UHGV virus genome: UHGV-0211726
Origin: a virus
DNA: 39,805 nt
Direction: 5' to 3' (one strand)
Below, piece by piece: positions 29,348 to 29,683 of this stretch. A model generated the notes under the pieces. It was given only the letters and a program-made list of their open reading frames with translations. It was not told the DNA's origin and did no database searches. Position 1 is the first letter of the stretch. Each line of letters begins with the position of its first letter. The translations under genes and the position numbers were made by a program.

Positions 29348-29536
29348 GTAGGATGCCAGTTGACATCCTTTACCCTATCCGCACTCGGGTACTGACACTA
29401 AATATAGATTGCTGAATCTATTTTTGTTTGTTTTGCAGATCTGCGGATATCTGCGTTTTGGTACCATTGCAATGTAAGTCCGGTGTGCACTCCCAGAACA
29501 GATCTCAGCTGTGCAGCCTGTATACTCACATCACAA

Positions 29537-29582
29537 AGCCGTGTACAGGAGTCGAACCTGTCTGCCCTACATTTGCCACGGC
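29537..29582 (-). ncRNA. tRNA-like 3' fragment (acceptor stem + T-arm only, 46 nt)
   Basis: GCCGTGG...ACAGGTTCGACTCCTGT-ACACGGC; no D or anticodon arms can be folded. Confidence 0.3.
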
Positions 29583-29617
29583 ATAAGAAAAAGCACCACC
29601 ACATAAGTGATAGTGCC
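29583..29617 (-). terminator. intrinsic terminator: 10-bp stem GCACTATCAC-TTAT-GTGGTGGTGC then UUUUUCUUAU
   Basis: read from the - strand; sits about 20 nt downstream of a consensus promoter. Confidence 0.6.
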
Positions 29618-29640
29618 TTTTTATCTTCTTTCACTCTTTC

Positions 29641-29669
29641 AGTATACCAGTCAAGCCACTATATGTCAA
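29641..29669 (-). promoter_or_regulatory. near-consensus sigma-A promoter TTGACA-17-TATACT on the - strand
   Basis: -35 is revcomp of 29664-29669, -10 is revcomp of 29641-29646. Confidence 0.55.
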
Positions 29670-29683
29670 TAGTTTTAGAACAT

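Follow-up and report, generated by a model that had tools for sequence, protein, structure and literature searches.

Results

Organization of the region

The window analyzed here is the whole stretch of 39,805 nucleotides (39.8 kb) of the viral genome UHGV-0211726, a prophage of a gut bacterium, and the subject is its late-gene control region, which covers the interval 29530-29670 and continues downstream to the gene terS; all features are read on the - strand. The gene of a putative late regulator is followed there by a near-consensus promoter, a short purine-rich initial transcribed region, an intrinsic-terminator hairpin, a tRNA-like element that comprises only an acceptor stem and a T arm (the half-tRNA, or mini-helix), a structured spacer, tRNA-Lys and the late genes beginning with terS and terL (Table 1). 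A preliminary description of this DNA had recognized the promoter, the terminator and the tRNA-like element, and all three proved to be real features of the - strand, located where it had placed them and conserved in relatives; tRNA-Lys, terS and terL downstream were confirmed by ARAGORN, Rfam and Pfam. Its comparison with the PR'-tR' arrangement of phage lambda was also upheld, an architecture of this kind being the conserved core of the late control region in the regulator family, tRNA-free relatives included. Additional to that description were a structured spacer of 190 nt, a long stem after tRNA-Lys and a second terminator before terS. The folding energy of the 511-nt stretch was better than that of 100 out of 100 shuffles (z = -3.9).

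Conservation of the core in related phages

The region matched temperate siphophages of Ruminococcus (Mediterraneibacter) gnavus. About 190 loci were gathered in searches with the regulator protein, with the pattern of the mini-helix and with a conserved block of the spacer, and were reduced to 99 non-identical segments; a scan of genome contigs with the spacer block gave mostly chance matches outside Lachnospiraceae. In all 99 cassette loci a stable hairpin with a U-run ended 2-4 nt before the mini-helix or a tRNA, and at least four unrelated hairpin sequences were found at this position. The upstream regulators of these loci fell into at least eight clades, all sigma-r4/HTH-like, each with its own -10 element and its own direct repeats beginning at the stop codon, a placement that agrees with the binding sites described for Ltr proteins (PMC3753634). 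A terminator followed the promoter in each of at least five unrelated modules.

Homologues that are 62-69% identical to the window regulator make up another clade (the 65%-identity clade), which was reached by exact-protein look-ups, whereas a scan of viral contigs with the regulator alignment did not reach it. All eight distinct loci fetched from this clade carried ATTCTAA / TTCTAAA repeats, the sequence TTGACA-N9-TTGACA-N2-TATACT and a GC-rich hairpin with a U-run, and their leader of about 24 nt was nearly invariant (GAAAGAGTCAAAGAATATCAAGAG). The terS start codon followed about 25 nt after the U-run in three of them (L170, L171 and L190), the entire intergenic region measured 87-89 nt in L166 and L191, and an odd tRNA-Ala-like gene stood after the hairpin in L167, L186 and L188. 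Since only about 25 nt separate the U-run from terS in the cassette-free relatives, there is no room for another late promoter, and an alternative promoter is absent from these loci. In the window itself the scan found no - strand promoter scoring at least 9/12 between the hairpin and tRNA-Lys. With the terminator placed between the promoter and terS and no space for another promoter, the late genes must be transcribed through the terminator. On this comparison the conserved core consists of the promoter, a short leader, the terminator and the late operon, with tRNA-like material as optional cargo.

Promoter and initial transcribed region

The sequence TTGACA-17-(TGg)TATACT (29669-29641) scored 11/12, the top rank in 5 kb, and was the only site within one mismatch of consensus in the window. 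By chance 0.26 such matches are expected, and at least one appeared in 24 of 100 shuffles; the consensus match by itself is weak evidence. The promoter gains credibility because both hexamers are invariant in 12 distinct relatives, eight of them with a regulator only 62-69% identical, so that the scan and the invariance together bear out the promoter first reported. In the alignment of these relatives (A3) the inner TTGAC was also invariant. Promoter strength was judged from the consensus alone.

The TTCTAA(A) repeats at the end of the regulator gene are candidate regulator boxes. About 24 nt of the initial transcribed region were nearly invariant across the 65%-identity clade. In the window this region contains the -10-like hexamer GATAAA, and GATAAA, TATCAA or TATAAA occurred at about +14 to +19 in the relatives (alignment A3). 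The 65%-identity clade (L166-L191) also has an inverted repeat across the promoter, with TTGACATTCT over the -35 and AGAATATCAA at about +10 to +20, which the window clade does not have.

Terminator hairpin

The transcript GGCACUAUCAC-UUAU-GUGGUGGUGCU (29617-29592) forms a stem of 11 bp, three of them G-U pairs, that starts 23 nt after the -10 and runs into a U5 tract (29592-29588). Its folding energy was -20.4 kcal/mol on the - strand versus -9.2 on the + strand. In 12 relatives 94.7% of the alignment cells were paired, compared with 34-64% in slid controls, and 4 of the 11 pairs were altered on both sides. With its 11-bp stem, U5 tract, strand asymmetry and covariation, the hairpin has the features of an intrinsic terminator, as the preliminary description had proposed for a stem with a U-run. 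The roughly 50-nt terminated RNA of that description is likewise the product to be expected from the positions of promoter and terminator, with a predicted length of 47-50 nt. A simple terminator scan did not call the hairpin; the likely cause is a run of A upstream that can pair with the U-run, making the stem longer. Weak matches to rli40 and SSRC34_2 in the Rfam scan reflect the generic terminator hairpin alone.

The type-B leaders found in other loci (e.g. L003 1700-1625) have a hairpin with a conserved 14-nt pyrimidine loop, CCCUUUCU. A small hairpin immediately before it in these leaders has a complementary loop of purines, AGAAGAAAG, and the two loops may be able to interact.

Half-tRNA

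The acceptor-stem/T-arm-only element was confirmed at 29582-29537. Its 6-bp acceptor (29582-29577 with 29543-29538) stacks on the 5-bp T stem of the T arm (29561-29545, loop TTCGACT) to give a 6+5-bp coaxial stack. The linker from the acceptor 5' strand to the T stem is 14 nt long and holds an invariant GG at 29567-29566; the discriminator is U29537, position -1 is U, and CCA is not encoded. The acceptor stem and T arm are those of a canonical tRNA, but the D arm and anticodon arm are replaced by the linker alone, and a canonical tRNA was rejected. Neither ARAGORN nor Rfam RF00005 made a call for the element, and ARAGORN found no tmRNA or permuted tRNA in the region. A tmRNA was also discarded on the ground that the element is contiguous, is only 46 nt long and has no mRNA-like domain. 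An Rfam search of the region and of four variant loci returned nothing but true tRNAs and weak matches to generic hairpins.

Thirty-one distinct variants were collected, in three length classes of 45, 44 and 39 nt plus the discriminator and with linkers of 8-14 nt. Their alignment (A1) was paired in 99.4% of the cells, while slid controls gave 28-52%, and 5 of the 11 pairs were altered on both sides, for example G4-C69 to A4-U69 and, in the T stem, 49:65, 50:64 and 51:63. The variants had been collected with a filter that requires pairing, a source of bias, and were checked by a position-based census of the 99 loci, in which 97 kept 6/6 acceptor pairs. The wobble changes, C3 to U and C72 to U, are compatible only with RNA of the - strand. 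The T-loop follows UUCRANN with a G53-C61 closing pair, and position 7:66 was never paired. The invariant GG is the counterpart of D-loop G18 G19, which builds the tRNA elbow. A covariance model of the half-tRNA gave one strong match in the window, 64.9 bits on the - strand versus 8.2 on the + strand, and scored true tRNAs at about 17 bits through the T arm only.

Conservation of the element exceeded that of its flanks, and it occurred in combination with varied hairpins, promoters and spacers. An attP site or the scar of a tRNA fragment was rejected, both acceptor strands being present and covarying. These data indicate that the half-tRNA is probably a previously undescribed, well-supported tRNA-derived small RNA element that belongs to no Rfam family. 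RNase P, RNase Z and the CCA-adding enzyme accept mini-helices of acceptor and T arm as substrates without the rest of the tRNA, and by analogy the half-tRNA is most likely a minimal RNase P/RNase Z processing signal. In one locus (L011, about 1340-1390) a deletion fuses the T-loop of the mini-helix to that of the downstream tRNA-Ile, which shows that T-loop sequences recombine.

Late regulator

The regulator gave a Pfam match to Sigma70_r4_2 of 22.2 bits, below the cut-off, over a C-terminal helix-turn-helix region, and it matched phrog_36, annotated as a transcriptional regulator. Its AlphaFold2 model (pLDDT 80) had domain 4 of ECF sigma factors as the top local PDB matches; the Foldseek search of the PDB with this model gave nothing at E below 0.1, with local sigma-4 matches and no Q structure, and the PDB sequence search gave noise only. 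The RinA and ArpU models did not match the protein, NCBIfam yielded only weak matches to sigma factors, and pairwise comparison detected no similarity to gp52, annotated in relatives as RinA family. The label ArpU/RinA-like that the gene had been given was not sustained, the sole signal being the sub-threshold sigma-70 region 4. A Q-like identity by homology also failed, antiterminator Q families being absent from the Pfam, NCBIfam and PHROG matches as well as from the PDB sequence and fold matches. The protein is acidic (pI 5.21), as is its C-terminal sigma-4-like part of 50 aa (pI 4.64), which is unusual for a DNA-binding domain.

Cargo between the terminator and terS

The half-tRNA heads a structured cassette of about 450 nt made up of a variable hairpin, a conserved domain, tRNA-Lys and the second terminator. 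In the spacer, changes in the stems GCAGAU/AUCUGC, UAGAU/AUCUA and ACCC/GGGU were wobble or compensatory on the - strand, and two invariant loops, AUCCGCA and UGCGGAU, are complementary over 7 nt and form a candidate kissing pair. The spacer had no Rfam match. A long-range GGTACC/GTACC helix was rejected, since GATATCAC replaces GGTACC with no compensating change.

Table 1. Features of the late control region and their positions in the window
Feature	Position	Strand	Evidence or detail
Late-regulator gene, 130 aa	30076-29684	-	ORF; Pfam, PHROG and fold evidence
TTCTAA(A) direct repeats (two)	29689-29684 (contains stop codon), 29680-29674	-	Kept in 12 relatives
Promoter -35, TTGACA	29669-29664	-	
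Second internal box, TTGACT	29654-29649	-	
TGg motif; -10, TATACT	29649-29647; 29646-29641	-	17-nt spacer to -35
Purine-rich initial transcribed region, GAAAGAGUGAAAGAAGAUAAAAA	29640-29618	-	
Intrinsic-terminator hairpin and U5	29617-29588	-	11 bp, loop UUAU
CUUAU between U-run and half-tRNA	29587-29583	-	
Half-tRNA (tRNA top-half mini-helix), 46 nt	29582-29537	-	Acceptor and T arm
Structured spacer, about 190 nt	29536-29349	-	
Hypervariable long hairpin of spacer	about 29536-29467	-	At least five sequence types
Spacer hairpin, loop AUCCGCA (29448-29442)	29454-29435	-	
Spacer hairpin	29420-29405	-	
Spacer hairpin, loop contains UGCGGAU (29383-29377)	29390-29372	-	
Spacer hairpin	29368-29351	-	
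tRNA-Lys, anticodon UUU	29348-29274	-	ARAGORN; Rfam tRNA, 62.6 bits
Long-range 10-bp stem	29270-29261 with 29196-29187	-	
Second terminator-like hairpin with T-run	29177-29158	-	About 20 nt before terS ribosome-binding site
terS, first late gene, followed by terL	29128-28631	-	Pfam Terminase_2, E = 8e-38

The slot upstream of the spacer held the mini-helix in 63 of the 99 loci by the first pattern, and a shorter third variant accounted for most of 18 others, the count for the element overall being 81 of 99. An odd 72-nt tRNA filled it in the remaining 18. This tRNA has the Ala anticodon CGC (AGC in L186) and was seen in L001 (1192-1264), L167, L186 and L188; it carries G3-C70 where the identity pair of alanine tRNAs is G3:U70, and an additional nucleotide separates its T stem from its acceptor stem. 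The downstream tRNA was Asn(GUU), Ile(UAU), Lys(UUU) or Trp(CCA), and it keeps one scaffold while its anticodon switches: tRNA-Lys(UUU) of the window is identical to the tRNA-Asn(GUU) of relatives at 70 of 75 positions, and one Lys variant departs in its body from the commonest Asn tRNA at just two places, position 34 and a base in a stem. Downstream of tRNA-Lys, a variable segment of 64 nt is closed off by a perfect 10-bp stem (GGACTACTGC / GCAGTAGTCC). The second terminator-like hairpin has a folding energy of -11.5 kcal/mol and is highly conserved in sequence among relatives.

In two loci (L077 and L080) a hicA/hicB-like moron sits exactly between the hairpin U-run and the mini-helix, and it brings a TTGACA-17-TATAAT promoter and a terminator with it; other morons, likewise equipped with a consensus promoter and a terminator, occupy this point in L046, L059 and L086. 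The site just after the late terminator is thereby shown to be an insertion hotspot for tRNAs, tRNA-like RNAs and morons, and the half-tRNA seems to belong to a mobile cassette inserted after the terminator and separate from the switch. Farther into the late operon a terminator-like hairpin of 13 pairs with U5 (24541-24511, -15.7 kcal/mol) was found. It lies directly after an ORF of 79 aa and about 20 nt before a Prp-like gene, a family label given by eye from the N-terminal sequence only, with no promoter between.

Discussion

Proposed mechanism

Promoter activity, termination efficiency, regulator-dependent read-through and processing are what we infer in the following mechanism. A sigma-A promoter at the end of the regulator gene would start transcription near a predicted position 29634, and once about 17 nt of conserved, purine-rich sequence had been copied, the RNA would fold into the intrinsic terminator. 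Unmodified polymerase, as well as early transcripts coming from the regulator gene, would mostly stop there, releasing the predicted short RNA and leaving terS, terL and the other late genes silent. Late expression would then require read-through of this terminator and of the second one before terS. The regulator, bound at the repeats and TTGAC boxes in and near the promoter, would make the polymerase resistant to termination and would be a functional analogue, not a homologue, of lambda Q at PR'-tR'. The predicted cleavage sites are U29583/G29582 for RNase P and the 3' side of U29537 for RNase Z; processing there would set the leader hairpin, the spacer RNA of about 190 nt and the tRNA free from one another.

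Regulated read-through, which the preliminary description had put forward as antitermination, is favoured because of the consensus promoter, the conserved initial region and the invariant inner box, and also because of the serial terminators at morons and the internal hairpin of the late operon. Where morons with their own terminators sit between the late promoter and terS, late transcription must cross several terminators. The whole scheme of an attenuated late leader, regulator-driven read-through and a half-tRNA acting as processing element is our best explanation, offered tentatively and with a chance of being correct that we put a little under even; regulator-dependent antitermination, as far as it can be read from the sequence, is a possibility that we rate at that level or slightly lower.

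Relation to known systems

In phage lambda the Q protein acts at PR' and tR' (6S RNA) in late-gene antitermination, with a leader RNA of 194 nt. The window resembles that system in having the regulator gene directly upstream of a probably strong sigma-70-type promoter, a leader predicted to be terminated and the late operon behind it; a box lies between -35 and -10, and the conserved initial transcribed region holds a -10-like hexamer, as at PR'. The box and the hexamer are candidates for the regulator-binding element and the sigma-dependent, promoter-proximal pause element of a lambda-type module. It differs in a sigma-region-4-like regulator with no similarity to Q proteins in sequence or fold, in a predicted leader RNA of about 50 nt and in the tRNA-like cargo between terminator and late genes.

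Processing by way of tRNA-like structures has precedents in the mini-helix substrates of RNase P, RNase Z and the CCA enzyme, the tRNA-like domain of tmRNA, MALAT1 mascRNA, the tRNA-miRNA units of MHV68 and the precursor of the phage P4 CI RNA. The half-tRNA shares with tRNA mini-helices the stacking of acceptor and T arm, a T-loop of canonical form with its GG elbow partner, U at -1 and the lack of an anticodon arm, and cleavage at it would leave a hairpin-protected upstream RNA and a free downstream noncoding RNA (ncRNA). It is distinct in being a natural, phage-encoded, contiguous element of 39-46 nt, with an 8-14-nt linker and outside every Rfam family. A tRNA top half might also have a role of its own, for instance in diverting defence nucleases, or other enzymes that recognize the elbow of tRNA, by serving as a decoy.

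The Ltr superfamily (RinA, ArpU, LtrA-C) comprises late regulators of Gram-positive siphophages (PMC3152322, PMC3753634, PMC13123087). A terminator between ltr and terS was demonstrated experimentally, and Ltr was the sole phage factor needed (PMC3152322, PMC3753634). For RinA, sequences located over 155 bp ahead of the mapped 5' end of terS are needed, a distance for which the authors had no explanation, and they regarded the system as more complex than direct activation (PMC3152322, PMC3753634). Regulators of this type bind direct repeats immediately distal to their own gene and are basic, with a pI above 8 (PMC3753634). The window is similar in its regulator of 130 aa encoded just upstream of terS, in the direct repeats that begin at the gene end (TTCTAA(A) and TTGAC, two of each), in a sigma-4-like C-terminal domain as in LtrA and in the terminator between regulator gene and terS. 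It differs in that its regulator has no RinA/ArpU HMM match and a pI of 5.2, and in that its promoter is consensus, not visibly activator-dependent and followed by the terminator; the published mechanism for Ltr is activation. This literature is compatible with regulated read-through.

Alternative explanations

Several points weigh against regulated read-through. The Ltr superfamily has been published as activators, and the repeats bound by the Ltr of Phi13 lie at -107 to -42, a classical activator geometry (PMC13123087). The sigma-4-like fold of the regulator suggests action at initiation, the protein has no similarity to Q families, and its acidity makes DNA binding itself uncertain. Promoters of the other modules do not have a good -35, have upstream repeats and look activator-dependent. 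The A-run that pairs with the U-run may weaken termination, and late expression could still be sufficient if a strongly activated promoter were paired with a terminator of 90% efficiency. The second terminator also shares its position with a weak promoter-like site (TTAGCA-18-TATTAT, 29179-29150, 9/12), which overlaps it. As to processing, cleavage of the mini-helix by RNase P and RNase Z would follow from general knowledge of mini-helix substrates.

If the regulator instead boosted initiation from the repeats in the classical way, elongating polymerase would not be modified, and the hairpin would mainly insulate by stopping early transcripts, with late ones leaking past. We regard this as unlikely, though far from negligible. 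It agrees with the description of Ltr proteins as activators on direct repeats just after their own gene (PMC3753634, PMC13123087), with the DNA-recognition fold of the regulator and with the B, C and D modules, in which repeats at about -35 to -60 accompany weak -35 hexamers; moreover, with just 14 nt between the regulator stop codon and the -35, the terminator of the early operon must lie downstream of the promoter. The window-type promoter, however, is consensus in both hexamers and has a 17-nt spacer and TG, so that an activator should be unneeded, and simple activation does not require the conserved initial transcribed region. The terminator after the promoter in all of the at least five unrelated modules, and up to three terminators in series at moron insertions, also argue against it. 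In another reading the promoter would drive only a stand-alone small-RNA/tRNA operon (leader RNA, mini-helix, spacer RNA and tRNA-Lys) ending at the second terminator, with the late genes served by a promoter adjacent to terS. The unit is indeed bracketed by promoter and terminator, and the 9/12 site mentioned above would start about 15 nt before terS, comparable to the 23-bp distance in phi11 (PMC3152322). That site, however, is weak, is identical across phages with unrelated regulators and has no regulator-specific boxes, and the cassette-free loci L170 and L190, which have only promoter, terminator and terS, are too compact to hold a second promoter. A terminator ahead of the tRNA-like element and tRNA would also be left unexplained, and we consider the stand-alone operon improbable.

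The promoter-terminator pair might also be the empty shell of a moron that has lost its cargo gene, with no role in late control. The hicAB moron of L077 and L080 has a similar -35 context (AAAAGTATTGACA vs AAAACTATTGACA), and the 3' end of its terminator (GGTGCTTTTCTTAT) resembles the window hairpin and meets the mini-helix at an identical junction. Promoter, leader and hairpin are nevertheless kept beside 65%-identical regulators, with different terminases and without the cassette, unlike a recent deletion remnant, and the likeness may mean that the moron was assembled from such a module; an empty shell is accordingly given little credence. For the half-tRNA, the preliminary description had offered a processing signal or a decayed tRNA. 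The former is the reading that we favour, whereas decay appears to be ruled out by the covariation, the invariant GG and the T-loop. In favour of a decaying pseudogene or a DNA-level recombination scar without RNA function, the linker resembles a D-loop remnant (TCAGTTGGGA), T-loop recombination occurs in these loci, as in the L011 deletion, and the slot can carry a full tRNA. The nearly complete pairing of the 31 variants with two-sided changes, the wobble changes that suit the - strand only, the conservation above the flanks and the acceptor pairs retained in the census make either origin very improbable. Translation through the hairpin of a leaderless small ORF (GTG at 29634, 78 codons), as a peptide or a translation-coupled attenuator, is the explanation to which we give hardly any weight. 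In three modules an ORF opens at or close to where transcription is predicted to begin, namely the window GTG, an ATG in the B module (gp15 in RG-TP1) and an ATG with a ribosome-binding site in the D module. The leader of the 65%-identity clade, however, has no start codon. A coding ORF across the region was rejected: frames differ across the homologous hairpin and mini-helix, the peptides are unrelated and the sequence constraints are those of RNA helices.

Implications

The comparison with relatives strengthens the case for the architecture, and two assignments are changed by this analysis, the protein assignment having been corrected and the half-tRNA promoted from a "fragment" to a conserved RNA element. 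A broader proposition, which we hold as rather doubtful, joins the two subjects. Sigma-region-4-like late regulators of Firmicutes siphophages, and possibly RinA/Ltr generally, may be more than simple activators: loaded onto RNA polymerase at a promoter that is itself largely constitutive, they may confer terminator resistance, and the tRNA top half of 39-46 nt may represent a new class of phage ncRNA matured by RNase P and RNase Z. Such regulators would be a Gram-positive counterpart of lambda Q that evolved independently.

Late control in Gram-positive temperate phages is credited to Ltr-type "activators". The promoter-terminator-terS layout, found across diverged regulators and at least five unrelated modules, frames the question as one of initiation or termination. 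Terminator resistance, if true, would account for the distance, noted long ago, that separates the site bound by RinA from the mapped 5' end of terS, and antitermination, if true, would change the view of the timing of packaging, lysis and transduction in a large group of gut and pathogen phages.

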